NCBI GenBank assembly: GCA_963593685.1
Contig: CAVBBP010000003.1
Location: 3,861-67,860, forward strand
DNA from: Segatella copri
GTDB taxonomy: Bacteria > Bacteroidota > Bacteroidia > Bacteroidales > Paludibacteraceae
Direction: 5' to 3'
DNA: 64,000 nucleotides
This document shows positions 1,039 through 33,940 of the stretch, piece after piece. Made by a program: the position numbers and the translations under genes. Under the pieces are notes generated by a model. That model made no database searches. It saw only the letters and a list, made by a program, of their open reading frames with translations, and was not told where the DNA came from. Within the stretch, counting starts at the first letter, position 1; each line of letters begins with the position of its first letter.

Positions 1039-2727
1039 ATGTCCCGCCATTCGCAAATACCAGCCGTCTATTGGGTTGCCGATCAGATGATTTCGGCGCT
1101 CGGATTTGGTACCGACCAAAACGCTGCGCAGATTTTGGCGTACCAATCGGGCGTGGTGCGGCACAGCGATACGAGCATCAGCGAAACGCCGTTCATGGCA
1201 GGGCAGATCGATTGGCAGCAAATCCCCGAAAATGCCGCTCTTACGCGCTTGGAGCGTTTGATGATTTTCGTGGTCGAACGCCTCAAAAAACAGGTGCCAG
1301 CGGTCGATTTTGCGCGCGATGATGTCGGTTTTGTGCTTTCGACTACCAAAGGCAACATCGACCTTTTGCAGGAACAGGGTTTGACCGACAAACGCATTTT
1401 TCTGCCCAATCTTGCCAAAAAAGTTGCCGATTTTTGCGGCATCACCACAGAGCCAATCGTTATTTCAAATGCTTGTATATCAGGCGTTTCTGCGCTTATT
1501 GTGGCGGCGCGACTCATCGAAGAGCGGCGCTACAAGCACATTTTGGTTGTGGGCGGCGACTTGCTCACGCAGTTTGTGGTGTCGGGTTTTCAGTCCTTCA
1601 AGTCGGTGAGCGAAAAACTTTGCCGCCCTTACGATGCGGCGCGCGACGGTCTGTCGATGGGCGAGGCGTGTGGCGCGGTTCTGCTCTCGAGCGACGAAAA
1701 TCTGCGTGGAAATCAGCCAGTTACGATTCTTGGCGGCAGCATTACCAACGATGCCAATCACATTTCGGGGCCATCGCGCACAGGCGATGGGCTGCACTAC
1801 GCCATACGCAACGCCATGGCCGAGGCGCAAGTGGTTGCGGCAGATTTGGCGTTTGTGAGCGCACACGGCACAGCCACCATTTATAACGACGAAATGGAGA
1901 GTAAATCCCTGAATTTGAGCGATTTACTCGATATTCCGACCAGCAGTCTGAAACCCTATTTCGGCCACACACTTGGCGCGTGCGGCGTGATAGAGAGCAT
2001 TCTTTGCGTGTGGCAACTGCGCCACAAAATGCTCTTTGGTACGCTCGGATTTGAAACGCTCGGCGTGCCTTATCCGATAACGGTTTCGGCTGAACATCAG
2101 GCAATTACGCATGGCGACTGCTGTCTGAAAATTGCTTCGGGCTTTGGCGGCTGCAATGCGGCGATGGTGCTGAAATTGGGAGTGGGCGAAAAAGTGGCGA
2201 ACAAATGGGACGAGTGTGCCATTAGTGTGCAGAAATCGGTGATTTTGGCATCCAATCGCCCCTTTGCCGAGTTTATCCGCGACGAATACCGTGCGTTGAA
2301 TGCGCCGAACATCAAGTTTTTCAAGATGGACGACCAGTGCAAATTGGGCTATGTGGCTGTCGAAAAACTGCTGCAAGGCGTTGATTTAGAGGACGATAGC
2401 ACACGCACTGCCATTGTTGTAGCCAACCACGCCGCCTCGCTCGACACCGATTTGCGCCACCAGCAACTGCTCAATGCGCACGAACCTGTGTCGCCAGCCG
2501 TGTTCGTTTACACGCTGCCAAACATCGTGAGTGGCGAAATCTGCATTCGGCACCACATTCAGGGCGAAAACACCTTTTTTGTGCAGAACGCCCCCGACGG
2601 CTTCACTCGCCAATACGCCGAAAATTTGCTGTGCCGTCGCATCGCCGACCGCGTCATCGTTGGCTGGTGCGAACTGCTCGGCGACCACTATACCGCGAAA
2701 TTTGATCTTTTAAGTCGCAAGATATGA
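1039..2727 (+). CDS. beta-ketoacyl-ACP synthase (KAS I/II type) with C-terminal inactive KS-like extension
   Basis: Cys-His-His contexts ISNACISGVSAL, SAHGTATIYND, FGHTLGACG; about 170 extra C-terminal residues without a catalytic Cys; last codons and stop lie in repeat module a. Confidence 0.85.
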   Translation: MSRHSQIPAVYWVADQMISALGFGTDQNAAQILAYQSGVVRHSDTSISETPFMAGQIDWQQIPENAALTRLERLMIFVVERLKKQVPAVDFARDDVGFVLSTTKGNIDLLQEQGLTDKRIFLPNLAKKVADFCGITTEPIVISNACISGVSALIVAARLIEERRYKHILVVGGDLLTQFVVSGFQSFKSVSEKLCRPYDAARDGLSMGEACGAVLLSSDENLRGNQPVTILGGSITNDANHISGPSRTGDGLHYAIRNAMAEAQVVAADLAFVSAHGTATIYNDEMESKSLNLSDLLDIPTSSLKPYFGHTLGACGVIESILCVWQLRHKMLFGTLGFETLGVPYPITVSAEHQAITHGDCCLKIASGFGGCNAAMVLKLGVGEKVANKWDECAISVQKSVILASNRPFAEFIRDEYRALNAPNIKFFKMDDQCKLGYVAVEKLLQGVDLEDDSTRTAIVVANHAASLDTDLRHQQLLNAHEPVSPAVFVYTLPNIVSGEICIRHHIQGENTFFVQNAPDGFTRQYAENLLCRRIADRVIVGWCELLGDHYTAKFDLLSRKI

Positions 2728-3113
2728 GTAGCAAGTAGCAAGAAAAATTAGGAGTGAGGAATTAGGAGTGAGGAATCTTTAGTGAGAAGTGAGCAGTGAG
2801 CAGTGAGCAGTGATGCGGCAAAGCCGCAATTTCAAATTTTATTTGATTTTTGCTCCGCTCGGCATAGTTCAAACGAGTTTGACTCTGCGCTCGCTTGTCG
2901 CACAAATTCAGAATTTCAAATTGTAGGGACGCACCGAGTGCGTCCGAAACAGTTCAACGATTAAACGATTCAACAAATAACCAGAAACATAGAAACTTAG
3001 AAACAAAAATTGCGGCAGCAATTTTGAGAAACAATTAGAAACCAGAAATTAGAAATAACTTTTTCACTTTACACACTTTATAGACTTTCAACTTTATAAA
3101 CTTTCACACTATT
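2728..3113 (+). repeat. mosaic intergenic repeat block, longest colinear copy (a-b-c-d-f-e-g-h-i-j-k-l-m)
   Basis: GTAGCAAGTAGCAAG, TTAGGAGTGAGGAATTAGGAGTGAGGAA, AGTGAGAAGTGAGCAGTGAGCAGTGAGC, GATGCGGCAAAGCCGCAAT hairpin, divergent f core, g hairpin 2927..2945, k hairpin, ACTTT words running up to the ACP start codon. Confidence 0.9.
2836..2912 (+). repeat. f core copy 1 (most divergent)
   Basis: TTTTATTTGATTTTTGCTCCGCTCGGCATAGTTCAAACGAGTTTGACTCTGCGCTCGCTTGTCGCACAAATTC aligns by eye with five other copies. Confidence 0.8.
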
Positions 3114-3371
3114 ATGGAACAACTGATTGAACAACTGAAACAGCAACTTATCGAGGCACTGAATTTGGAAGAGATGACGCCCGCCGACATCGATACCGAT
3201 GCGCCGCTTTTTGGCGCGGGCTTGGGCTTGGATTCGATTGATGCGCTCGAAATCATCTTGATTCTCGAACGCGAATACGGCATCAAACTGCCCGACCCGA
3301 AAGCCGCCAAAGCGCATTTTGCCTCGGTGCGCACACTGGCCGAATTCATCGCTGCCAACCGCACGAAATAG
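3114..3371 (+). CDS. acyl carrier protein (phosphopantetheine-binding)
   Basis: 85 aa, GLGLDSIDALEI with the conserved Ser; lies between two KS genes. Confidence 0.85.
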   Translation: MEQLIEQLKQQLIEALNLEEMTPADIDTDAPLFGAGLGLDSIDALEIILILEREYGIKLPDPKAAKAHFASVRTLAEFIAANRTK

Positions 3372-3380
3372 CAGCGAAAC

Positions 3381-3436
3381 TGACTTGCCGCAGTCAATTT
3401 TTTGAGGTAGAGTAGAGGCTCTGCCTACTGTTTTTT
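3381..3436 (+). terminator. two weak hairpin+T-run candidates after ACP (possible attenuator)
   Basis: TGACT-TGCCGC-AGTCA followed by ATTTTTT (3381..3403); GTAGAGGC-TCT-GCCTAC followed by TGTTTTTT (3412..3436); stems are short. Confidence 0.3.
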
Positions 3437-3477: not shown

Positions 3478-3672
3478 TTGAAAGATTGGAAAGTTTGTAG
3501 GTTATAGTTTATAGTTTATAGTTTATAGACAAAAGAATAAAGAGTAAAGACAAAAGACCTAGGCTTTTCCCCCTTCGGGGGAAACGGGAAAGGGGGCTAC
3601 GACCATCACCAATGCGTTAAACCGATCAACCAATCAACTTTTCAACGACCAAATAACCAAATCCAAAAACTT
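3478..3672 (+). repeat. mosaic intergenic repeat block (n-o-p-q-i)
   Basis: GGTTATAGTTTATAGTTTATAGTTTATAGAC, AAAAGAATAAAGAGTAAAGACAAAAGAC, p module, AATGCGTTAAACCGATCAACCAATCAAC, AAATAACCAAATCC up to the GTG start of the next KS. Confidence 0.9.
3562..3600 (+). repeat. p module copy (5C/5G type)
   Basis: GGCTTTTCCCCCTTCGGGGGAAACGGGAAAGGGGGCTAC; TTTCCCCC pairs with GGGGGAAA around a TTC loop. Confidence 0.85.
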
Positions 3673-6951: not shown

Positions 6952-8136
6952 TTGAAGTTTTACTTTAACGACATAAAACAGCGTATCAAGAACCTGAATT
7001 GCGTGGTGCTGATACCGACCTACAACAACGCTGGCACGCTGTTGCAGGTTATTGACGCTGTGCGCCGCTACGCTACCGACATAATGGTGGTGAACGACGG
7101 CAGCACCGACAACACCGCCGCACTTTTGGCCGCCAAACCCGACCTGCACACCATCGGTTATGCACGCAATCGCGGTAAGGGCTATGCGCTGAAAATGGGT
7201 CTGCGCGAGGCAGCACGCTTGGGCTACGCCTACGCCATCACCATCGACAGCGATGGGCAGCACTATGCCGACGACATCGCCGTGTTTGTGGCGGCCGCCG
7301 AGCAGCAACCCGACACGCTTTTTGTGGGTGCGCGCAACCTGCAAGCCGAAAATATGCCGCAACGCAACACCTTTGCCAACCGCTTTTCAAATTTTTGGTA
7401 TTGGGCGGAAACTGGCATCAAACTCACTGATACACAGTCGGGTTTTAGGCTCTATCCGTTGGCGAAATTGGCAAAAATGCGCTTCATCACATCGCGCTAC
7501 GAATTTGAGGTGGAGGTGCTGGTGCGTGCCGCTTGGAAGGGCATAAAGGTCGCAAATGTGCCGATAAAAGTCTATTATCCGCCCGCCGCCGAGCGTGTGT
7601 CGCATTTCCGTCCAGCGCGCGATTTCACGCGAATTTCGCTGCTGAACACCTACTTGGTGCTTGTCGCTCTGCTGATTTATTATCCGTGGCGTTTTCTGCA
7701 CGCGCTCACATGGACGAATGTGAAGCGTTTTGTGCAGCGCAATATCACGCAGTCGCCCGAGAGCAACCTGCGTATGTCGCTGGCCATCGGGTTGGGCATC
7801 TGTTGCGGCATACTGCCTGCGTGGGGTTACCAAATGTGGATTGCGTTGGGCGTGGCGCAGGTGGCGCGGCTCAACAAAGTGCTGGCTGTGGTGGCGAGCA
7901 ACATCAGTGTGCCGCCCATGATTCCGTTCATTCTGTTTGGCAGTTACGCCATCGGTTGTCGCCTGTTGGGCAATCCTATTGCGCTGCTGTTCAGCGAAGT
8001 AACCTTCGACAGCGTGATGGTGAACCTGTGGCAATATCTGCTCGGCGCATGCGTGCTGGCACTACTGGCTGGCCTCGTGGCGTGGTTGATTAGTTGGGCA
8101 TTGTTGGGAATTTTTAGGAAAGGGAAGCGCAGATGA
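6952..8136 (+). CDS. family 2 glycosyltransferase fused to DUF2062-like membrane domain
   Basis: VVLIPTYNNAGTL, DSDGQH (DxD) in the first ~230 aa; multi-TM C-terminus; TTG start (no upstream ATG). Confidence 0.75.
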   Translation: MKFYFNDIKQRIKNLNCVVLIPTYNNAGTLLQVIDAVRRYATDIMVVNDGSTDNTAALLAAKPDLHTIGYARNRGKGYALKMGLREAARLGYAYAITIDSDGQHYADDIAVFVAAAEQQPDTLFVGARNLQAENMPQRNTFANRFSNFWYWAETGIKLTDTQSGFRLYPLAKLAKMRFITSRYEFEVEVLVRAAWKGIKVANVPIKVYYPPAAERVSHFRPARDFTRISLLNTYLVLVALLIYYPWRFLHALTWTNVKRFVQRNITQSPESNLRMSLAIGLGICCGILPAWGYQMWIALGVAQVARLNKVLAVVASNISVPPMIPFILFGSYAIGCRLLGNPIALLFSEVTFDSVMVNLWQYLLGACVLALLAGLVAWLISWALLGIFRKGKRR

Positions 8137-9179
8137 TAGAAAAAACGCACACATTTATAGACCTTTTTTCTGGTTGTGGAGGCATGTCCTTAGGATTTGA
8201 AATGGCTGGTTTTGAAAGTATTTTGGCCATAGATAATTGGGCAGACGCTTTGAATACATATAAGTACAACAGACATGGAGCAAAAACTCTCTGTGTGGAT
8301 TTGGCAAGTATAGAAACGGAAGATGTAGAAAATGCCATAAATGGTAAAAGGGTAGATGTGATTATTGGTGGTCCTCCGTGTCAAGGCTTTTCTGTTGCTG
8401 GAAAAAGAATTGTTGACGACGAACGAAATATACTCTATAAGAGTTTTGTTCGCATGGTTCAATATTTTCAGCCCAAAGCCTTTGTAATGGAAAATGTGCC
8501 AAACATTTTAAGTATTGGTAATGGGATCGTAAAAAAATCTATTTTAAGTGATTTCGAAAAGTTGGGATATACTGTGAAAGTGCAAGTATTGACGGCTTCT
8601 GATTATGGCGTACCACAAAATAGGCGACGCGCCGTGTTTGTTGGTCTACTAAATGGAAAAGAGTTTGAATTTCCTACACCCATTGTAGATGTTGCTAACC
8701 GCGTTACTGCTTACGAAGCGTTGGGCGACTTGCCAGAATACTCGCTGCTAGACGGTGCAGATTATCCTGTAGAAGCGAGTTGTGCCTATCAAACATATGT
8801 AAGAGCCGATAGCAAAGGCGTGTATAATCATGAAATAACAATTCATAATGAGCAAACAAAATCTATAATAGCGATGGTTCCCGATGGCGGCAATTACAAA
8901 GACTTACCTGTAGAATTGCAACAGACGAGAAAGGTGCATATCGCTTGGACAAGACTCAACAGCAAGAAACCGAGTTTTACAATAGATTGTGGACATAGGC
9001 ATCACTTCCATTATGAATGGAACAGGATTCCGACTGTTAGGGAAAGCGCAAGGCTACAGTCTTTCCCAGATGATATTATCTTTTTGGGTACAAAAACAAG
9101 CCAATATAAGCAAGTTGGTAACGCAGTACCTCCTTTAATGGCAAAATCAATAGCAGATCAATTAAATAAAATACTATGA
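8133..9179 (+). CDS. DNA (cytosine-5)-methyltransferase, RM subunit M1
   Basis: Motif I FIDLFSGCGGMSLGF, motif IV GGPPCQGFS, ENV, QNRRR, GNAVPP; AT-rich codons; ATGA overlap with the GT2 stop. Confidence 0.95.
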   Translation: MIEKTHTFIDLFSGCGGMSLGFEMAGFESILAIDNWADALNTYKYNRHGAKTLCVDLASIETEDVENAINGKRVDVIIGGPPCQGFSVAGKRIVDDERNILYKSFVRMVQYFQPKAFVMENVPNILSIGNGIVKKSILSDFEKLGYTVKVQVLTASDYGVPQNRRRAVFVGLLNGKEFEFPTPIVDVANRVTAYEALGDLPEYSLLDGADYPVEASCAYQTYVRADSKGVYNHEITIHNEQTKSIIAMVPDGGNYKDLPVELQQTRKVHIAWTRLNSKKPSFTIDCGHRHHFHYEWNRIPTVRESARLQSFPDDIIFLGTKTSQYKQVGNAVPPLMAKSIADQLNKIL

Positions 9180-10663
9180 AAAAACAAGGAATAAAGTATT
9201 ATCAAGTTTCCAATAAGAATTGGTATAGGATACACTTTGTAAGACCACGATTCAAAAGTAATATAGAGAATGTCTTACTTTACATGGCCAACGAATGTTG
9301 CCGTATTCCTAAGTGTTCGTGTGCAGAATACAGCAAAAGGTATTTTAATGCTATTAAAATGTTTCCAGGTAATGTTGGTATGAAAAAGAAAACTCTCGAT
9401 AATTGGAGAACGGAAATACCTGCGCTGTTTGGATTTTATAAGGAGAATAAAGATCGTAACATCACGGAAACATCTCCAATGGCTGTGTTTTTACACGAGA
9501 ATCAAGATTTAACACAATTTTTAAGGATATTTTTATATTCCTTTCAGTTTCCTGGTGGACATATGAAATCCAACGATGTAAAGGATATCATATCTCATGG
9601 CATTAAATTCAAGCCAGCAAAGATAATTATACAAGTATTAATGGCAGGTAACGAAATTCTAAACAACGAGAATAGCTCAAAAGATATGTCTTTATCCGCA
9701 GAAGAAGCCACTTACTGTATATTCAATGATGTGCGCGTAACAAGTGGAAAACGCTCGCCTTCCGAAATCGCAAAAATTATATTGGAAAATCGGAAAAATT
9801 CTGTTAAATATTACAATTCCAAAGATGTAAAAATATGTTCATTGAGAGGAAATGCAAGAACAAAAGGCGACGTAACAAGATATGCTGGAGATATTCTTGA
9901 TTACATGGAAATAGCCAATTTATTGATTAAGAGAAATGGTTATTTTTCGTTGAAAGAGAACGAATTGTCAGCCCTAACGACCTTTGCAAATGATACAACA
10001 TGGTTTTGTGGATATGATAATTTTTATGGCAAAGAGAATGTGGAAACAACGGATATAGCAAAAATTGAACCAGAATGGTTTGAATATGTTAACAAATCTT
10101 TAAAGCCAGATCTTTTTAGGACGGATATTCGTTCAATTATGGCGGAAAATGACGAAATAGATGTTATTTTTACAGATAGAATAAAAGATCTCGTGGCATC
10201 TGATGATAGAACTACTAGAGATATCGGAAATCTTGGTGAAGCTATTATTTGTAGCCATGAAAAAATGAGGCTAAAAAAAAGTGGCTACGAGAAATTCATT
10301 CATGCTATTCAAATAGTCGATAGTCCTTCTTACCATCCTGGATATGATATTGATAGTTACGAGGCCGACGGAACGGAATGCCATAGATATATTGAAGTAA
10401 AAACTACTATTAGTAAGCAAAAAATACAAATGTATGGTTTCCATATGTCGCCAAATGAATGGCGAGTAGCGGCAACAATCAAAGAACATTATTGTGTATA
10501 TCGTTTAATGTTGAATGAACACAGCAAAACGCTTATTATTTTAAGAAATCCAGTGAATTTGTATAAAACAGACAAAATAGAGGCAGAACCGCATGATGGA
10601 ATGGAAATTTCGTTTTCTACAGAAACATTTGTACCAACAGAATTATTGATATGGAAAGAATAA
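9176..10663 (+). CDS. candidate type II restriction endonuclease (PD-(D/E)xK, DUF3883-like C-terminus)
   Basis: Sandwiched between and overlapping two m5C methyltransferase genes; C-terminal GNLGEAIICSHE...GYDIDSYEADG...RYIEVKTT...MSPNEWRVAA...YCVYRL fits a D..(E)xK nuclease core; I recognise nothing in the N-terminal ~340 aa. Confidence 0.55.
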   Translation: MKKQGIKYYQVSNKNWYRIHFVRPRFKSNIENVLLYMANECCRIPKCSCAEYSKRYFNAIKMFPGNVGMKKKTLDNWRTEIPALFGFYKENKDRNITETSPMAVFLHENQDLTQFLRIFLYSFQFPGGHMKSNDVKDIISHGIKFKPAKIIIQVLMAGNEILNNENSSKDMSLSAEEATYCIFNDVRVTSGKRSPSEIAKIILENRKNSVKYYNSKDVKICSLRGNARTKGDVTRYAGDILDYMEIANLLIKRNGYFSLKENELSALTTFANDTTWFCGYDNFYGKENVETTDIAKIEPEWFEYVNKSLKPDLFRTDIRSIMAENDEIDVIFTDRIKDLVASDDRTTRDIGNLGEAIICSHEKMRLKKSGYEKFIHAIQIVDSPSYHPGYDIDSYEADGTECHRYIEVKTTISKQKIQMYGFHMSPNEWRVAATIKEHYCVYRLMLNEHSKTLIILRNPVNLYKTDKIEAEPHDGMEISFSTETFVPTELLIWKE

Positions 10664-11640
10664 AAGTAGCCTCATTGTTTTGTGGTTGTGGTGGTATGGA
10701 TTTGGGAATACTTGGAGGATTCTCATATCTTGAAAAAAAGTATGAAAAAAATGCTTTTGATGTTGTGTATGCTGTAGACAATGACGAATATTGTACAAAA
10801 ATATATAACGAAAATTTCGAGCATAAGTGTATTGTCGAAGATGTACGACGAATAGAAATCGATAAGATCCCTAGTTTTGATATGCTTATAGGCGGTTTCC
10901 CTTGTCAGTCATTTTCCATTTCTGCTCAAAATCCTCCTCGTTTAGGTTGCAAAGATGAGAGGGGTATGTTATTTTTTGAAATGGTAAAAATTCTTAAAAT
11001 GCGTCAACCTCGCTTTTTTATTGCAGAAAATGTAAAGGGCATACTTTCTGCGAATAAGGGAGGAGCATTTCCAATGATTATAAGTGAATTTAGAAATGCA
11101 GGTTATAAGGTAACTTATAAATTACTAAATGCCTATGAATATGGTGTGCCACAAAAGAGAGAGCGCATAATAATCGTTGGTTTTCGTAACGAAAAAGATT
11201 ACACAAAATTTAGATTTCCACAGAAAGTAGATACATATAATCGTAAAGTATTGGGCGATGTTATATTGGAAGAAGCAAATAATGATGAACAACTTTTTTT
11301 TAGTAATAAGGCTGTTGAAGGCATGATGGCCGTACGACAAAAAATGAACAAAGGAAGGACTATGAAACTTGAACAACCATGTAATACAATAAGTGCACAC
11401 CTTGCAAAAGTTAGCCTTAATAGTACAGATCCTGTTTTAATGGTTGGCGACCGATATAGACGATTTTCACCAAGAGAAGCAGCAAGTATACAGTCGTTTC
11501 CAAATACTTTCAAATTAGATGCCGTTTCTCAAATACGCCAATATAAGGCTATCGGTAATGCAGTTCCGCCTGTAATGATGTGGCATATAGCAAAAGCATT
11601 GCAAGATGTTATGGAAAATTCTAACTCGACAACGCCATGA
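10651..11640 (+). CDS. DNA (cytosine-5)-methyltransferase, RM subunit M2
   Basis: VASLFCGCGGMDLG, GGFPCQSFS, ENVKG, QKRERIII, GNAVPP; 13-nt overlap with the nuclease ORF. Confidence 0.95.
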   Translation: MERIKVASLFCGCGGMDLGILGGFSYLEKKYEKNAFDVVYAVDNDEYCTKIYNENFEHKCIVEDVRRIEIDKIPSFDMLIGGFPCQSFSISAQNPPRLGCKDERGMLFFEMVKILKMRQPRFFIAENVKGILSANKGGAFPMIISEFRNAGYKVTYKLLNAYEYGVPQKRERIIIVGFRNEKDYTKFRFPQKVDTYNRKVLGDVILEEANNDEQLFFSNKAVEGMMAVRQKMNKGRTMKLEQPCNTISAHLAKVSLNSTDPVLMVGDRYRRFSPREAASIQSFPNTFKLDAVSQIRQYKAIGNAVPPVMMWHIAKALQDVMENSNSTTP

Positions 11641-12137
11641 CCTACGAAACCAAATACGCGTCGCCGTTGGGCGTGCTGGTGCTGCAGAGCGATGGTCGCT
11701 ATTTGACGCGCCTCTTTTTTGCTGATTCGCACGCTGCCGTGAAGGGCGGGGTGCAGGTCGAAGAGAAACGCCTCCCGATTTTTGAGCAAACAGTCCGCTG
11801 GCTCGACATCTATTTTGGTGGCGCAGTGCCCGATTTCACGCCCGAATACCGCATCGAAGGGAGCACGCCTTTTCGGCAGCAGGTGTTGCAGTTGGTGTGC
11901 CAAATTCCATACGGCCAAACGGCGACCTACGGCGATTTGGCGCAGCAGATAGCCGCCGCAAACGGCCTCGAAAAGATGTCGGCGCAGGCGGTGGGTGGCG
12001 CAGTTGGCTGGAATCCCATCTGTCTTGTAGTGCCGTGCCACCGCGTGGTCGGCGCACACGGCAACCTGACGGGCTACCGCGGCGGCCTCGCACGCAAAAA
12101 GCAGTTGCTGGACTTGGAAAGAGTAGAAAGTGTGTAA
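11637..12137 (+). CDS. ogt: methylated-DNA-protein-cysteine methyltransferase
   Basis: IPYGQTATYGDLA and active-site VPCHRVVG; GC returns to host level exactly at its ATG (ATGA overlap with M2 stop). Confidence 0.9.
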   Translation: MTYETKYASPLGVLVLQSDGRYLTRLFFADSHAAVKGGVQVEEKRLPIFEQTVRWLDIYFGGAVPDFTPEYRIEGSTPFRQQVLQLVCQIPYGQTATYGDLAQQIAAANGLEKMSAQAVGGAVGWNPICLVVPCHRVVGAHGNLTGYRGGLARKKQLLDLERVESV

Positions 12138-12403
12138 AGTTTATAAAGTAAAAAGTGTGTAAAGTGTGTAAAGTTATTTCTAATTTCTAGTTTCTAATTT
12201 CTAATTGTTTCTCAAAATTGCGGCAGCAATTTTTGTTTCTAGGTTTCTGGTTATTTGTTGAATCGTTTAATCGTTGAACTGTTGAAGCGTTTCGGACGCA
12301 CTCGGTGCGTCCCTACAATTTGAAATCTGAAATTTGAAATTCTGTCATTGCGGCTCTGCCGCATCACTCCTCACTCCTAATTCCTAACTCCTCACTCAAA
12401 AAC
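12123..12403 (-). repeat. mosaic repeat block, reverse complement of the 2728..3113 order (m-l-k-j-i-h-g-e-d-b)
   Basis: GTAGAAAGTGTGTAAAGTTTATAAAGT starts inside the last ogt codons; g hairpin 12294..12312 as GGACGCACTCGGTGCGTCC; ends CACTCCTCACTCCTAATTCCTAACTCCTCACTC just before ATG 12404. Confidence 0.9.
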
Positions 12404-15400
12404 ATGACTCGTTTTTTTCTGAAAATATACGATTTTTTTGAACGGCGGCGCGCGTTGATGTGGCTGCTGATGCTCGTTTCGGTGGTGGTGATGGCGCTGC
12501 TGGCGGCGCAACTGCGGTTGCACACCGACATCACCAGTTTTGTGCCTGAAAGTGCAGAGCAGGGCGGCAGCAAGGAGATTTTGGCGAATTTGAAGATAAA
12601 AGACCGCATTATCGTGCTGTTTTCGGCTGAAAATGAGGTGATTACGCCCGACGATTTGATTGCCGTAGCCGACGCTTTCGAGGACGAACTTTGGCAGCGC
12701 ACCGATTCGGCGCACATTCTCAATCTCGACGCGCACATCGATGTGTCGGTGGTTGATAACACCATCAATTTTATCTATCGCAATCTGCCTGTTTTTCTCG
12801 ATTCGGCCGACTACGCCGCGCTCGACAGCCTTTTGCAGCCGCAGGTTTGCGACGAACGCATGGCCGAAAATTACCGCGATTTGCTCTCGCCGATGAGCGT
12901 AGGTGTGCAGGATATTGTGCTACGCGATCCGTTCGGACTGGGCAGTCGCACGCTCGCTAAATTGCAGAATTTCAATCAGTTCGACGGATTCGCCATCTAC
13001 GACGACCGCCTTTTTTCTGACGATTTCAAAACGCTTTTTCTCTTTATCGATTCGCAGGACGGCAGCAACGCATCGCCGCTGAACGACGCACTGACCACTG
13101 CCATCGAGGAGAGTTTGGCGCAAGTGAACTCCGAAAATATCGCGGCTGAGTGCTACGGCGTGCCGATAATCGCCACCTATAATGCGCGGCAAATTCAGCG
13201 CGATTTGATGGTTACCGTCAATGTGGCGCTGTTGGTCATTATTGTGCTTATCTTGCTGGCTTTCAGGCGGAAACGAACCATTTTCTTGCTGATTTTGCCT
13301 GTGGTTTATGGCACACTGTTCGCTGCGGCGTGCATCTATCTGGCGCAAGGGCAGATTTCTGCCATCGCCATCGGCACAGGAGCGGTGGTTTTGGGCGTGG
13401 CGTTGAGTTATTCGGTGCATGTCATTTCGCACGCCGAGCATAGCAGCAACGCACGGCAGGTTATTGCCGAACTGACCTATCCGCTCACCATCGGCAGCAT
13501 CACCACCATCGGCGCATTTGTAGGTTTGCAGTTCACCAGTTCGCCGCTGTTGCAAGATTTTGGGCTGTTTGCCGCCTTGTGTTTGGTGGGAACAACGCTT
13601 TTTTGTCTCATTTTTCTGCCACATTTCTTGACGGCGGGCGGCGGCCAAACCAAACGGCGCGCCATGCGCATTATCGACAAGATAAACTCCTATCCCTACG
13701 ACCGAAATCGTTGGCTGATAGGCGGTTTGGCGGTGGTTACCATTGTTGCGCTCTTCACCTGCAACGATGTGCGTTTCAACTACGACATGATGCAACTCAG
13801 TTACCGACCGCCGCACCTCGAAAACGCTGGGAAACGCCTCCACAACCGCCCCGACGAGGATATGTCGATTTTGCTTGTGTCGCACAGCGGAAACGCCGAA
13901 AAAGCCGTTGCCGACTATGCCGCTACCAACGCCATTTTGCATGCGGCGTGCGATTCGCAGACGGTGCAGAAATATATGTCGGCCGCCGATTTTTTGCCGA
14001 CCATCAGCGTGCAAACCGAGCGCATTGCACATTGGAACGCCTATTTTTCGGCCGAAAAACGGGCGAAAATTGCCGCACAACTGCACCAATCGGCTCAAAA
14101 AGTGGGCTTTGCAAGCGACGCTTTCGACCAATTTTCCGAAATTATCGGGCAGAACTATGCGCCGCACAACCTTTTGGCCGAATCTGCGGGGCAGCCGTTG
14201 GCATTTTCGAGTTTGGTAGAGCAGAGCGACACAACCACGCTGCTGCTCACGCAAGTTTGGCTGGCCGACGCACACAAGCCCGACCTTTACGCGCAAGTTG
14301 CCAAAACTTCGGCCATCATCGACCAAAGTTATTTCATCGGGCAGGTGGCGCGCTCCATCAACGACGATTTCAACCTGATACTCGCCATCTCGTCGCTGCT
14401 GATATTTGGCGTGCTACTGATTTCGTACGGCCATTTGGTGCTGGCGTTGCTCGCTTTTCTGCCGATGTTTGTCAGTTGGTTCATCATTCTCGGCTTTATG
14501 GCCATTTTCGGCATCGAATTCAACATCGTCAATATCATTCTTTCGACATTCATTTTCGGCATTGGCGACGATTTCAGCATCTTTGTACTCGATGGTTTGC
14601 GCAGCGAATACCGCGAAGGGAAACCGCTACTGCCAGCGCACAAAAACGCCATTTTCTTCTCGTCGCTGATGACCGTTATCGGCATGGGCGCACTGCTTTT
14701 TGCGCACCACCCAGCGGTGCATTCGTTGGCGTTGGTGTCGCTGTTGGGCATTTTGGTGGTGGTGTTTGTGTCGTACATTTTGCAGCCGCTGCTGTTCCGC
14801 TGGTTGGTTACTTGGCCTGCCTCGAAAGGCGGTTGGCCTGTGGCTGTGAGCGACCTGCTGCGCACCGCTTATGTTTTCACTATCTTTCTGATTCTCTGTG
14901 TTTTAACGCAAATAGCCATCGTCGTTTTGCTGATTGTTCCATCGACCATGCGCTGGAAACGCCGCACGATGTGTCGCATTGTACGGCTGGTGCTTTACTG
15001 CACACACCACTGCGTTCCCGATGTGCGCAATAGCGTGGAGTGCGGCGGCGAAACATTCGAAAAACCAGCCATCATCATCGCCAATCACCAGTCGATTATC
15101 GACCTCACAGCCATCATCGGTATGGTGCCGAAATTGGTCGTTATCACCAAAAAATATGTCTGGCACTCGCCATTTTTCGGCTGGTCGGTGCGTATGGCGG
15201 GCTACATGCATTCCGAGCAGGGCGTCGAACAGATCGACCGCACAGTGGCGCAACGCATTGCCGAAGGCTATTCGGTGCTGATTTTCCCCGAAGGCACGCG
15301 CTCGCCCGACCTGAAAGTGCATCGCTTTCATCAAGGCGCGTTTCTGCTGGCCGAACGACACAAACTCGATATTCTGCCAATCGCTGTTTATGGCAATGGC

Positions 15401-20969: not shown

Positions 20970-21195
20970 TGAGTGAGGAATTAGGAATTAGGAGTGAGGA
21001 ATTTTTTAGTGAGAAGTGAGCAGTGAGAAGTGAGCAGTGAGGCGGCGAAGCCGCAATGACAGATTTCAGATTTCAGATTTCAAAATTTCAAATTTCAGAA
21101 TTTCAAATTGTCGGATTAACCAACTCATCAAATAACCAAATAACCAAATAACCAAATCAACGATTCAACGCTTCAACAGTTCAACAATAAAAAAA
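20968..21195 (+). repeat. mosaic repeat block (b-c-d-e-i-h)
   Basis: TGAGTGAGGAATTAGGAATTAGGAGTGAGGAA, AGTGAGAAGTGAGCAGTGAGAAGTGAGCAGTGA, GGCGGCGAAGCCGC hairpin, (ATTTCAG)n, (AAATAACC)3, TTCAACG words. Confidence 0.9.
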
Positions 21196-21429
21196 ATGAC
21201 CATAAAAGTTCTACTTGAAACGGATTGTTCGGGCTGCAAGGCCACGCTCGAAGCCGTGCGTGCAGCGGCGGCCGAAATCGGCGGCATCGAGGTGCTGCCA
21301 ATAACCGATGTGAAAACCATTCTCGGCTACAAAGTGTGGCGCATGCCCGCCATCGTCATTGACGAAAAAGTGGTGTCCGTCGGCAAAAACCTCAACCTCG
21401 AACAAGCAAAAAAGTTGATACTTAAATAG
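21196..21429 (+). CDS. small thioredoxin-fold (CxxC) protein
   Basis: 77 aa, CSGC near the N-terminus, WRMPAIVIDEKVV; resembles the Thioredoxin_3 small redox-active family. Confidence 0.6.
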   Translation: MTIKVLLETDCSGCKATLEAVRAAAAEIGGIEVLPITDVKTILGYKVWRMPAIVIDEKVVSVGKNLNLEQAKKLILK

Positions 21430-21657
21430 TCGCAAGTCGCAAGAGAGTTTGAAAGTGTATAAAGTCTATAAAGTGGAAAGTAGGGATGCATCGAGTGCGT
21501 CCGAACGCTTCAACGATTAAACGCTTCAACGATAACCAAACAACAACGAAACATAGAAACAGCGCGCAGCGCGAGAAACTTAGAAACTATACGAAACAGC
21601 GCGTAGCGCAATCTGAAATTCTGAAATCTGAAATTCTGAAATTAAAAAAAAATTACC
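21427..21657. repeat. mosaic repeat block (a, m reversed, degenerate g, h, j, u)
   Basis: TAGTCGCAAGTCGCAAG begins with the stop codon; GGATGCATCGAGTGCGTCC 21484..21502; AGCGCGCAGCGCGAG; TCTGAAATTCTGAAATCTGAAATTCTGAAATT. Confidence 0.85.
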
Positions 21658-32230: not shown

Positions 32231-33511
32231 ATGAAAAAGATTTGGACTATTGTGGCAGCAATGGCGGCGACGCTTTGCGCCACGGCACAAAACAGTGAAA
32301 ATGGCCACGAGTGGGTCGATCTCGGTCTGCCGAGCGGCCTGAAATGGGCAACAATGAATGTGGGCGCAACCACGCCCGAAGGTTATGGAAATGCCTACGC
32401 TTGGGGCGAAACCGAACCGAAAACAAGGTACGATTTCACAACCTACAAATACGGCGACGGCACAACTTTTAGCAAGTACAACAGTACCGACGGCAAAGAG
32501 GTGCTCGACCTCGAGGACGACGCTGCACGAGTGAATTGGGGTGGCTCGTGGCGCATGCCTACCGCTGCCGATTTTGAAGAACTTTTGAACAACTGCACAT
32601 GGATTTACAACGAATCCAATGGCGGTTACACGGTGCAGGGGAGCAATGGTAACACCATTTTTTTGCCGAAAACGAACTTCTACTATGGCACGAATCCGTC
32701 TGATTGGGCAGGTTTCTACCGCACAAGTAATTTGAGCGACACTCAATGGAAAGCGTCCAAGTATTTTGCCCATTGGGATCCTGAATGGGGACAGAACGGT
32801 ATTGCTGCTATTGATATTGAGCGTGGACACGGCATGGCGGTGCGTCCAGTCTGCATTCCCACCAAGTGGTACGCTGTAGAGGTTAAAACCGATTTGGAAG
32901 GTGGCTCTGTTACTGCCGATTTTCTAAAAGCCAAAGAGGACGACCTCGTTACGCTGACCATCGCACCTGCCAGTGGCTACGAACTCGCCAAAATCGAGGT
33001 AAAAGACGCTGACAACCAAGCAGTTGAACTCAACGGCAACAAATTTACCATGCCAGCAAGCGCAGTTACGGTGCGTGCCGAGTTTGTGAAAACGAATTAC
33101 ACCATTACCGTTGCTGAAATCGAAAATGGCACTGTGGAAGCCAACCACCAAACGGCGCAACTCGGCGACGAAATTACGCTGACCATCAAAGCCGCTACTG
33201 GCTACGAACTTGCCAAAATCGAGGTAAAAGACGCTGACAATCAAGCGGTTGAACTTGACGGCGACAAATTTACCATGCCAGCCAGCGCAGTTAAGGTGAG
33301 TGCGGTATTCAAACGCCAAACGCCCACTTCGCTCCAAAGTGCGGAAACGGTCGCTATCTACACCGAAAACGGCCGCATTGTCTGTGAGCAGGAGTTCCGC
33401 ATCTACGACCTATTCGGTCACGATGTTACACGCATGAATGGTTCGCTGAACGGTGTTTATATCGTGAAATTTGGAGAGAAGGCGCAGAAAGTGATTGTTA
33501 GTCGCAAGTAG
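32231..33511 (+). CDS. T9SS-secreted surface protein (lectin-like N-domain, two tandem beta-repeat domains, C-terminal sorting domain)
   Basis: Signal peptide MKKIWTIVAAMAATLCATAQ; SWRMPTAADFEELL as in FISUMP/DUF1566-type domains; two ~75-aa repeats GYELAKIEVKDADNQAVEL.G.KFTMPASAV; tail NGVYIVKFGEKAQKVIV typical of a T9SS CTD. Confidence 0.7.
   Translation: MKKIWTIVAAMAATLCATAQNSENGHEWVDLGLPSGLKWATMNVGATTPEGYGNAYAWGETEPKTRYDFTTYKYGDGTTFSKYNSTDGKEVLDLEDDAARVNWGGSWRMPTAADFEELLNNCTWIYNESNGGYTVQGSNGNTIFLPKTNFYYGTNPSDWAGFYRTSNLSDTQWKASKYFAHWDPEWGQNGIAAIDIERGHGMAVRPVCIPTKWYAVEVKTDLEGGSVTADFLKAKEDDLVTLTIAPASGYELAKIEVKDADNQAVELNGNKFTMPASAVTVRAEFVKTNYTITVAEIENGTVEANHQTAQLGDEITLTIKAATGYELAKIEVKDADNQAVELDGDKFTMPASAVKVSAVFKRQTPTSLQSAETVAIYTENGRIVCEQEFRIYDLFGHDVTRMNGSLNGVYIVKFGEKAQKVIVSRK
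32951..33294 (+). repeat. intragenic tandem duplication (two ~119-nt near-identical segments 225 nt apart)
   Basis: 32951..33069 and 33176..33294 share ACGCTGACCATC...GGCTACGAACTYGCCAAAATCGAGGTAAAAGACGCTGACAAYCAAGC...AAATTTACCATGCCAGC. Confidence 0.85.
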
Positions 33512-33940
33512 CAAGAAGCAAGTAGCAAGAAAAGATTTTTAGAACATAGAAGATAGAACATAGATTGTAGAGCCGTCACAATGTGGCGGCTCTGCTGTTT
33601 TTTGTTATGCAGAAGGCGCTGGGAACCGCCTAATTCGCTACGCGCCCAACAACATCACACAATTCAAAATTCTTAATTGGATGCAATTCTGTCCCCCTGC
33701 TTGAAGCGAAGCGGAAAGATAGGGGGACGAGCGAAGCGGAGGGGGTTGAAAAATCAAATCTCCAAATAACCAAATCCACAAATCACCAAAAAAGGACGTG
33801 GCATGCCGCGTCCCTACTTTCAACTTTATGAACTTTACAAACTTTCCACTTTATAGACTTTATACACTTTCAAACTTTCAAACTTTCCACACTTTACAAA
33901 CTTTTTCCGAAAAACATTTGGTGGTTACGAAAGAAAAGCG
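33499..33940. repeat. mosaic repeat block (a-n-r-p variant-i-g variant-m)
   Basis: TAGTCGCAAGTAGCAAGAAGCAAGTAGCAAG covers the stop codon; palindrome GGACGTGGCATGCCGCGTCC 33794..33813; a long ACTTT-word array ends at the rpsO promoter. Confidence 0.85.
33567..33603 (+). terminator. intrinsic terminator of gene 32231..33511
   Basis: GTAGAGCCG-TCACAATGTGG-CGGCTCTGC followed by TGTTTTTT. Confidence 0.7.

Follow-up and report, generated by a model that had tools for sequence, protein, structure and literature searches.

The spacer at positions 2728-3113 of the analyzed DNA, a window of 64,000 nucleotides from a Bacteroidales genome, occupies the entire interval between two genes of a polyketide/fatty-acid-type cluster, one for a beta-ketoacyl synthase (KS; 1039-2727) and one for an acyl carrier protein (ACP; 3114-3371). 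It is composed almost completely of short tandem words, between which lie a single stretch of ~75 nt without tandem structure and three small GC hairpins. The original prediction, made from the letters alone, regarded these words as units of 7 or 8 nt centred on stop triplets, whose tandem copies rotate stops through all three reading frames. We consider it probable, though well short of certain, that the spacer instead carries a copy of a lineage-specific dispersed mosaic repeat, and that the period and the stop codons are by-products of this repeat or a filter on its location rather than a frame-rotating device. The anatomy of the repeat, the order and polarity of its words, its distribution, the expansion of spacers, the indels of whole units, and the take-over of stop codons were all observed directly. 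The source genome (designated G000) is a draft of 2.47 Mb in 110 contigs with ~50% GC, and the closest matches of its AspRS are metagenome-assembled genomes of gut Paludibacteraceae (Bacteroidales). As a repeat-free comparison, we used a congeneric genome (G004, 335 kb sampled).

The words are sub-units of a dispersed mosaic intergenic repeat and not free-standing motifs. Approximately 164 kb of intergenic DNA in the source genome is matched at 10 or more other places of this genome, and repeat material was identified in 647 of the 966 spacers of at least 100 nt, with a density of ~10 arrays per 10 kb and dozens of word families. Every part of the spacer 2728-3113, including the hairpins and the non-tandem core, has 65-220 genomic matches, and the longest alignments to its copies extend up to 221 nt at 85% identity. 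Of the word pairs compared across spacers, 533 stand in a fixed order and 28 in the reversed one. The words are also strongly biased in strand relative to the flanking genes, with sense to antisense ratios of 86:10 for AGGAGTG, 53:5 for AACTAATC, 52:4 for AACCAATC, and 51:2 for AAATTAG. Their positions in the spacers are characteristic as well: GTAGCAA, AGGAGTG, and AGTGAGA occur 6-20 nt after the upstream stop, ATTTCAA about one quarter of the way along the spacer, TAGAAAC words at ~0.6 of its length, and AACYAATC and ACTTT words 10-30 nt before the downstream start. Each copy runs from a purine-rich end (P; GTAGCAA, AATTAGGAGTGAGG, and AGTGAGM words) to a G-poor end (Q; AACYAATC or ACTTT words), with ATTTCAR words, GC hairpins, sometimes the ~75-nt core, and then TTCAACRR, AAATAACC, and TAGAAAC words in between. 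Convergent and divergent spacers contain whole P-to-Q blocks, in which Q words stand even beside stop codons, and this fits the copying of whole elements better than a word-by-word functional placement. The triplet GGG is nearly absent from the words (0.02 times the expectation), and they have no G-quadruplex potential. The fraction of G before start codons is 0.13 in the source genome and 0.14 in the repeat-free congener, the leader composition being the same in both. The polarity of the repeat is most simply explained if copies were selected for being compatible with the expression of the flanking genes, as the Q end reproduces the native G-poor, A-rich leader of the genus.

Tandem arrays were called by TRF, which gave 5314 rows for the source genome, and redundancy was then removed. 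All words listed in the original prediction were found at their places in the spacer. In this spacer, TRF gave AGTAGCA (7 nt), AATTAGGAGTGAGG (14 nt, as 7+7), AGTGAGM (7 nt), AACGATTA and AGAAACAT (8 nt each), and AATTAGA (7 nt), in addition to the ACTTT family (9 and 16 nt, with indels). Most of the predicted unit lengths were right; the words GTAGCAAG and GTCGCAAG, however, repeat every 7 rather than every 8 nt, and both 7 and 8 were found for the TAGAAAC family. The dominance of the two periods is real, genome-wide, and far above background. The non-redundant intergenic arrays number 1449 for period 7 and 1128 for period 8 (2577 together), followed by 129 for period 9, whereas periods 5, 6, 10, 11, and 12 account for 1, 41, 44, 45, and 29 arrays, respectively; within the window, there are 43 arrays of period 7, 37 of period 8, 11 of period 9, and one of period 6. 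Altogether, ~96 kb of intergenic DNA is tandem repeat. Arrays inside coding regions peak at multiples of three (108, 254, and 151 arrays for periods 6, 9, and 12). The repeat-free congener has a flat background of 6, 7, 7, and 7 arrays for periods 7, 8, 9, and 10, and the 80 other Bacteroidales (AspRS) loci mostly have 0-3 such arrays per 10 kb compared to 12 here, three short loci reaching 3.9-6.7. The depletion of periods divisible by three, which had been anticipated from the proposed frame rotation, was not observed, the distribution showing a sharp peak at 7-8 nt and no hole at multiples of three. Since periods not divisible by three (4, 5, 10, and 11) are just as rare as 6 and 12, and period 9 (the ACTTT family) is the third commonest and obeys the same grammar, avoidance of multiples of three is not supported as the explanation of the 7-8 nt period. 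This period would rather be a property of the kind of repeat and of the process that generates it.

The repeat is confined to a subclade of one genus of Paludibacteraceae. A 24-mer of the purine-rich module b (Table 1), counted in the source genome at no more than two mismatches, has 191 matches there, 131 in G005, 68 in G013, 62 in G002, and 42 in G001; G010 and G008 are intermediate, eight congeners have at most one match, and in other families it is absent or single. The repeat-rich genomes are also the closest relatives as judged by ACP, with an identity of 91-100% versus no more than 85% in the others. Both the vocabulary and the period profile of G005 are the same as in the source genome. 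Seven matches of the 24-mer were found in G021, which belongs to another genus of the family and lacks the mosaic. This genome has a solitary (GAGTGAGGAGTTAG)x3 array at a gene 3' end (locus L081, positions 1496-1536; G021:C4), and thus the purine-rich word can occur alone outside the repeat-rich subclade.

The history of the KS-ACP spacer can be followed through its orthologs. Two other genera have a spacer of 1-6 nt, and three repeat-free congeners have one of 13-29 nt, compared to 55 nt in G010, 139 nt in G005, 180 nt in G013, 291 nt in G002, 394 nt in G001, and 386 nt in the source genome. Between the spacers of G000, G001, and G002, whole units of 7, 8, and 9 nt are inserted or deleted, and some modules are present in one spacer and absent from another; the spacers of G005 and G013 have other words in the same positional classes. 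From the growth of the spacer, the whole-unit indels, and the module swaps, we conclude that the blocks are gained DNA with a fast turnover, proceeding through unit-wise expansion and contraction and through module exchange. Within one subclade, copies of the repeat would have colonized some two thirds of the longer spacers and extended tight junctions of 1-29 nt to 139-394 nt.

The stop codons carried by the words are used by genes. In the source genome, the stop codon of 127 well-scoring genes falls within a TRF array. The genes that are followed by an array end with TAG in 37%, TGA in 34%, and TAA in 29% of cases, compared to 20%, 29%, and 51% for the other genes without an adjacent array, and 11%, 27%, and 61% for the genes of the repeat-free congener. 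Past the conserved ...AKFDLL, KS has C-terminal tails that are repeat-encoded and vary from congener to congener. The gene ends with ...AAG ATA TGA in G000 and G001, with the same DNA read one frame over (...TAT GAG TAG) in G002, with ATT GAT AAT TGA inside an (ATTGATA)n array in G005, and with another word-borne TAG in G013. Together with the 127 genes and the shift in codon usage, these endings demonstrate that the stops of the words are used, and in different frames. Arrays can abut or overrun the 3' ends of genes, since they close the reading frame after a few codons, and many genes come to end on a word-borne TAG or TGA.

As arithmetic, the proposed rotation is correct: the worked example AGTCGCAAGATATGAGTAGCAAGTAG has TGA, TAG, and TAG in frames 1, 2, and 3, and a stop-bearing unit of 7 or 8 nt necessarily stops every frame within three copies. 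The spacer 2728-3113 has 7, 9, and 10 sense stops in the three frames, all of which are closed within 24 nt of the KS stop. Stop density was evaluated on a clean set of 382 co-directional block spacers of 120-600 nt with at least two arrays each. A previous test on whole spacers, which had given no enrichment and slower closure, was discarded, since uncalled genes (e.g., in a cassette at 8.1-11.6 kb of the window) had contaminated the long spacers; the rerun on the clean set reversed its result. The block spacers contain 6.57 stops per 100 nt compared to 5.67 in dinucleotide shuffles. The expected enrichment on the sense strand is therefore present (1.16-fold), but it is nearly the same on the antisense strand (1.15-fold). 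The median distance to closure of all three frames is 45 nt, compared to 83 nt for global shuffles, 66 nt for local shuffles, and 87 nt for the spacers of the repeat-free congener; 64% of the blocks are closed within 60 nt, versus 30-46% of shuffles and 21% of the congener spacers. When the antisense strand is followed backwards from the downstream start, closure takes 53 versus 65 nt, an equally strong speed-up at a place where no ribosome arrives in a co-directional spacer, which counts against a stop device. Block interiors close no faster than expected. Furthermore, 339 of the 382 block starts (P ends) are copies of one family, so that the large z-scores rest on very few independent events, and among 39 unrelated block starts only 13% close all frames within 60 nt.

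At the level of individual words, the signal mostly disappears. A sense stop is carried by 57.5% of 259 distinct words, but shuffled words reach 54.7%, a difference that is not significant. Counted per array, units with a sense stop make up 66% versus 63% after letter shuffling, and those with a stop on either strand 82% versus 79%, while 22% of arrays are free of sense stops in all three frames. The triplet TGA and its complement TCA are enriched almost equally (2.64- and 2.58-fold), TAG is enriched 1.58-fold, and TAA is depleted (0.52-fold). The assertion that the words are centred on stops failed. Within arrays, copies differ from each other at 8.8% of stop-triplet positions and at 7.1% of the remaining positions, and control triplets behave in the opposite way, being more conserved than their surroundings. 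This analysis calls for caution, since the copies are not independent and the scoring of 14-nt units as 7-mers inflates the number of apparent substitutions.

A different word-level feature concerns start codons. ATG is avoided on both strands, so that ATG or CAT appears in 5% of distinct words versus 13-14.5% expected (z ~ -4.4), for example in the blocks 2728-3113, 20976-21643, and 33504-33904; this signal is stronger than any stop enrichment in the words. Bacteroidota initiate translation without Shine-Dalgarno pairing, and in such a phylum the avoidance of ATG may matter.

Given the equal enrichment on both strands, the antisense speed-up, the lack of an effect in block interiors and among distinct words, the depletion of TAA, the greater variability of stop positions, and the in-gene arrays with periods in multiples of three, we infer that the stops are a by-product or a filter rather than a selected function. 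Three-frame stops would be the arithmetic result of AT- and purine-rich words whose length is not a multiple of three, and they would act mainly as a permissive filter, the arrays being lethal inside genes and tolerated where they abut or overrun gene 3' ends. The rotation of stops is thus partly supported, as a consequence of the repeat rather than as a selected function. The repeat itself probably spreads by copying and slippage, its copies growing, shrinking, and swapping modules by whole units, presumably through slipped-strand mispairing or unequal recombination between copies.

Several observations weigh against this interpretation. The few background arrays in the repeat-free congener show no preference for 7-8 nt, and hence a generic bias of polymerase slippage alone cannot explain the period. 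Both block ends close the frames faster than composition-matched shuffles, and stop-destroying variants at the P end are scarce (0.157 versus 0.310 expected, compared to ratios of 0.57-0.81 for control triplets), which leaves room for some selection on the end-stops. The avoidance of ATG suggests that translation-related selection acts on the words. Finally, no copying machinery was found: neither a Y1 transposase of the RAYT type nor a reverse transcriptase in the source genome, and no terminal inverted symmetries.

The searches for mechanism genes (Y1 transposase, reverse transcriptase, and MutS/MutL) covered 16 genomes. A RAYT/REP mechanism was rejected, as G000, G001, G002, and G013 have no Y1 transposase (PF01797); matches to this family are scattered in G005, G011, G012, and G014 and do not track the repeat content. 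Template copying by a retroelement was likewise rejected, there being no reverse transcriptase (PF00078) in G000, G001, G005, and G010; matches are present in the repeat-free genomes G003, G004, and G006. The loss of mismatch repair was dismissed as well, since a full-length MutS (MutS_I in open frames of ~870 aa) is encoded in all 16 genomes, and MutL in all genomes that are at least 86% complete. A short stand-alone MutS_I open reading frame (ORF) of ~190-220 aa was found in only two of the 16 genomes (G000:C15:17085-17342 and G002:C14:22996-23262), and it does not track the repeat content across the other repeat-rich species. There was no indication of MITE-type terminal inverted repeats: inverted 7-mers are common to the two outer thirds of the same spacer in 26% of cases, less often than with other spacers (36.5%). 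A foldback architecture with inverted ends had been suggested by the pairing of P and Q in the RNA fold and by AAAGTGTG and CACACTTT at opposite ends; it was ruled out, as inverted 7-mers within spacers show no genome-wide excess and the relevant P and Q families rarely co-occur.

In one rival explanation, the words are selected three-frame seals. Both ends of the repeat would be adapted, with inward-facing stops, to terminate disrupted or read-through ORFs within ~15 codons in either orientation, so that insertions are made harmless and the spread of the element is helped, and the word length that is not a multiple of three would be part of the design. Such seals would account for the fast closure that is seen at both ends and not in the interior, and for the excess of blocks closed within 60 nt over both shuffles and the congener. 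They are also consistent with the 127 genes that end in arrays, the rise of TAG from 11% to 37%, the DNA string that serves as a stop in two frames in orthologs, the scarcity of stop-destroying substitutions at the P end, and the whole blocks of convergent spacers, which are bordered by gene 3' ends on both sides. We nevertheless regard this explanation as unlikely. The effective sample is about one family of P ends, whose properties could be an accident of one founder sequence; the distinct words have no enrichment, TAA is depleted and the stop positions are the more variable ones, more than a fifth of arrays lack a sense stop, and families of period 9 are part of the same grammar while periods 4, 5, 10, and 11 are not used. 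We are similarly doubtful of a self-spreading, translation-silent spacer element, in which the ends would be selected for inward stops in three frames (hence the words not divisible by three) and the words for ATG avoidance. If true, its copies could overwrite gene ends and split tight operons without fused or spurious proteins.

Still less probable, in our estimation, is a role of the arrays as regulatory punctuation. The transcribed arrays would be orientation-specific binding or processing sites in polycistronic mRNA, laid out as a purine-rich trailer after each stop and an unstructured G-poor leader before each start, with S1, cold-shock-type or other single-strand binding proteins, and RNases as candidate partners, the hairpins as stabilizers or terminators, and the stops and the period as secondary features. 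The strict order and the polarity relative to genes speak for such a role, as do the avoidance of ATG, the mimicry of native leaders, and the location of Q words, which end so close to start codons that no room is left for a promoter, and which must therefore lie in the transcript. The RNA fold of the spacer is better than that of shuffles (z = -2.7), and a similar proposal was made for TAACTGA repeats (PMC4679880). However, dozens of unrelated words would require many binding partners, close congeners run the same operon with spacers of 1-29 nt, words and modules are freely swapped at orthologous sites, ~10% of blocks are inverted, and Q words stand beside stop codons in convergent spacers. 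Comparison of the window with Rfam gave no match at the gathering score of any family. There is no terminator-like site in 2728-3113, the nearest one being at 3405-3426 after the ACP gene, and sigma-70 promoters and intrinsic terminators in the block are not above chance in a scan whose model is not that of Bacteroidota promoters. An artefact of assembly or binning, by which a metagenome assembler created or misjoined low-complexity arrays, would be conceivable in a draft of 110 contigs, as short repeats can confuse assemblers. We give it almost no credence, because independently assembled congeners share modules in the same order at orthologous spacers, the KS-ACP spacers of G000 and G001 align end to end except for whole-unit indels of 7-8 nt, the vocabulary is common to at least six genomes, and the arrays lie inside long contigs between intact genes.

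The anatomy of the spacer and its flanking genes is summarized in Table 1. The sequence GTAGCAAGTAGCAAG of module a occurs 119 times in the genome; its family has 58 sense and 6 antisense copies, at a median of 12 nt after upstream stops. The corresponding median for the module b family, with its 86 sense and 10 antisense copies, is 20 nt. Between G000 and G001, module c differs by a whole-unit indel of 7 nt and the region of 8-nt words by one of 8 nt. The orthologous G002 spacer has neither the core nor the hairpin, and (ATTTCAG)x7 stands in their place. The AAATTAG family has a relative spacer position of 0.61. The ACTTT family constitutes the G-poor leader, ending 3 nt short of the ACP start codon; it is generally found 10-14 nt before downstream starts, and here G000 and G002 differ by a whole-unit indel of 9 nt.

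Table 1. Features of the KS-ACP spacer and its flanking genes (window positions)
Feature	Position	Strand	Evidence and remarks
Beta-ketoacyl synthase (KS) gene	1039..2727	+	Pfam match; final codons AGT CGC AAG ATA TGA, including the stop, fall in module a
Module a: AGTCGCAAG / GTAGCAA words, period 7, ~2.3 copies	2713..2742	+	TRF 2727-2742; overlaps KS stop codon 2725-2727
Module b: AATTAGGAGTGAGG, 14 nt (7+7), 2.2 copies, purine-rich, with TAG and TGA	2746..2776	+	TRF
Module c: AGTGAGM, period 7, ~4.7 copies, with TGA	2781..2813	+	TRF
GC hairpin GCGGC-AAA-GCCGC	2817..2829	+	Direct reading; paired in RNA fold; ~150 genomic matches
ATTTCAA/ATTTCAG words around the ~75-nt non-tandem core (2836-2912)	2830..2925	+	Core with ~80 genomic matches
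GC hairpin GGACGCAC-CGA-GTGCGTCC	2927..2945	+	Direct reading; paired in fold; ~155-160 genomic matches
8-nt words TTCAACRR / AACGATTA, AAATAACC, AGAAACAT, all G-poor	2952..3005	+	TRF 2956-2974 and 2983-3005, period 8
Small hairpin TTGC-GGCA-GCAA	3010..3021	+	Direct reading; paired in fold
AATTAGA / CAGAAAC words, period 7	3033..3056	+	TRF
ACTTT family (ACTTTACAC, ACTTTATAG, ACTTTCA), mixed periods 7/9/16 with indels	3065..3110	+	TRF periods 9 and 16
Acyl carrier protein (ACP) gene	3114..3371	+	Pfam PP-binding; orthologs in 10 genomes

Further features were noted in the neighborhood of this spacer. A terminator-like hairpin with a T-run lies directly 3' of the ACP gene (3405-3435, enclosing the scan site mentioned above), and G002 has a similar hairpin at the same place. 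In the source genome, it is followed by another block (3492-3672) with AGTTTAT, AGACAAA, and AACCAATC words and a hairpin formed by C and G tracts. At 12122-12397, a whole block is inverted between two genes of the plus strand, so that TCACTCC x5, the reverse complement of purine-rich P words, forms a G-poor sequence just before the start codon at 12404. The stretch 8133-11640 is low in GC (38-39% compared to ~50%) and has long ORFs that the codon-usage gene caller missed, with no word arrays inside; its composition and codon usage would fit a foreign cassette.

Short tandem repeats with some of these properties have been described in other bacteria. The class termed LSSR comprises tandem units of 5-11 nt that are over-represented in some bacteria, with heptamers as the commonest, units that are not multiples of three located between genes and multiples of three within genes, and slippage proposed as the generator (Mrazek, Guo and Shah 2007, as summarized in PMC4679880 and PMC4692102). 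The arrays studied here have the same character, being near-perfect, far above a comparable genome (2577 arrays versus 13 in the 335 kb of G004), and divided in the same way between intergenic and coding DNA. Unlike LSSR, they are equally rich in octamers, have an extreme density, and form dozens of word families whose order and polarity are fixed and which recur, along with hairpins and a core, in hundreds of spacers. Direct repeats of the heptamer TAACTGA are known from Beggiatoaceae, Cyanobacteria, and five Bacteroidetes including Paludibacter propionicigenes (MacGregor 2015, PMC4679880). Their phylogenetic distribution is patchy, they have stops in all three frames and sometimes lie over the upstream stop codon, and the stops were interpreted as a constraint on where the repeats survive and not as a function (PMC4679880). 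Our repeat shares the three-frame stops and the overlap with stop codons of upstream genes; however, a single word is repeated in the TAACTGA arrays, for which no ordered multi-word mosaic was described, and tandem TAACTGA is absent from both strands of the genome (0 copies of the dimer TAACTGATAACTGA).

Dispersed intergenic arrays are also formed by the G-rich heptamers GGGAATC in Xanthomonas and GGGGAYT in Nostoc, which vary in length between close relatives, the Xanthomonas arrays starting on average ~28 nt after the upstream ORF (Rehm 2015, PMC4692102). The mosaic resembles these heptamers and the STRR of heterocystous cyanobacteria in forming dispersed intergenic heptamer arrays shortly after an upstream ORF. 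It differs from them in its sequences, in having no G-quadruplex potential, and in its many word families in fixed order. The STRR heptamer is reportedly CCCCAGT; no dimer of GGGAATC, GGGGATT, or CCCCAGT is present in the genome. Mosaic intergenic repeats of another kind are the BIMEs/REP of enterobacteria and the BOX elements of pneumococci, which combine a few types of modules in a characteristic order with a variable number of internal units, and are often located within operons and oriented relative to transcription, their units being palindromes of ~35 nt or boxes of ~45 nt. As in BIME/REP, modules of fixed order are arranged between genes here (533 versus 28 word pairs); in contrast to BIME/REP and BOX, they consist of direct tandem words of 7-8 nt, and the RAYT transposase is missing from the source genome. 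In the literature, we found no account of Paludibacteraceae repeats. New with respect to the known classes are the ordered and polar multi-word mosaic, its scale, the expansion of a spacer inside an operon, and the take-over of stop codons.

If the interpretation as a dispersed mosaic repeat is right, ~7% of this genome would be a young, fast-evolving repeat system that has pushed apart once tightly coupled genes, given over a hundred genes new stop codons and C-terminal residues, tripled the use of TAG, and imposed a common grammar on most spacers. For genome annotation, this would imply that gene starts and ends in such genomes are often repeat-derived. The repeat-rich and repeat-free species of one genus would also provide a natural experiment on the tolerance of bulky intergenic DNA. 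Their comparison may reveal why short tandem repeats in bacteria settle on units of 7-8 nt, and by which rules non-coding DNA is kept safe in Bacteroidota, the candidates being frame-closing ends, ATG avoidance, and G-poor leaders.

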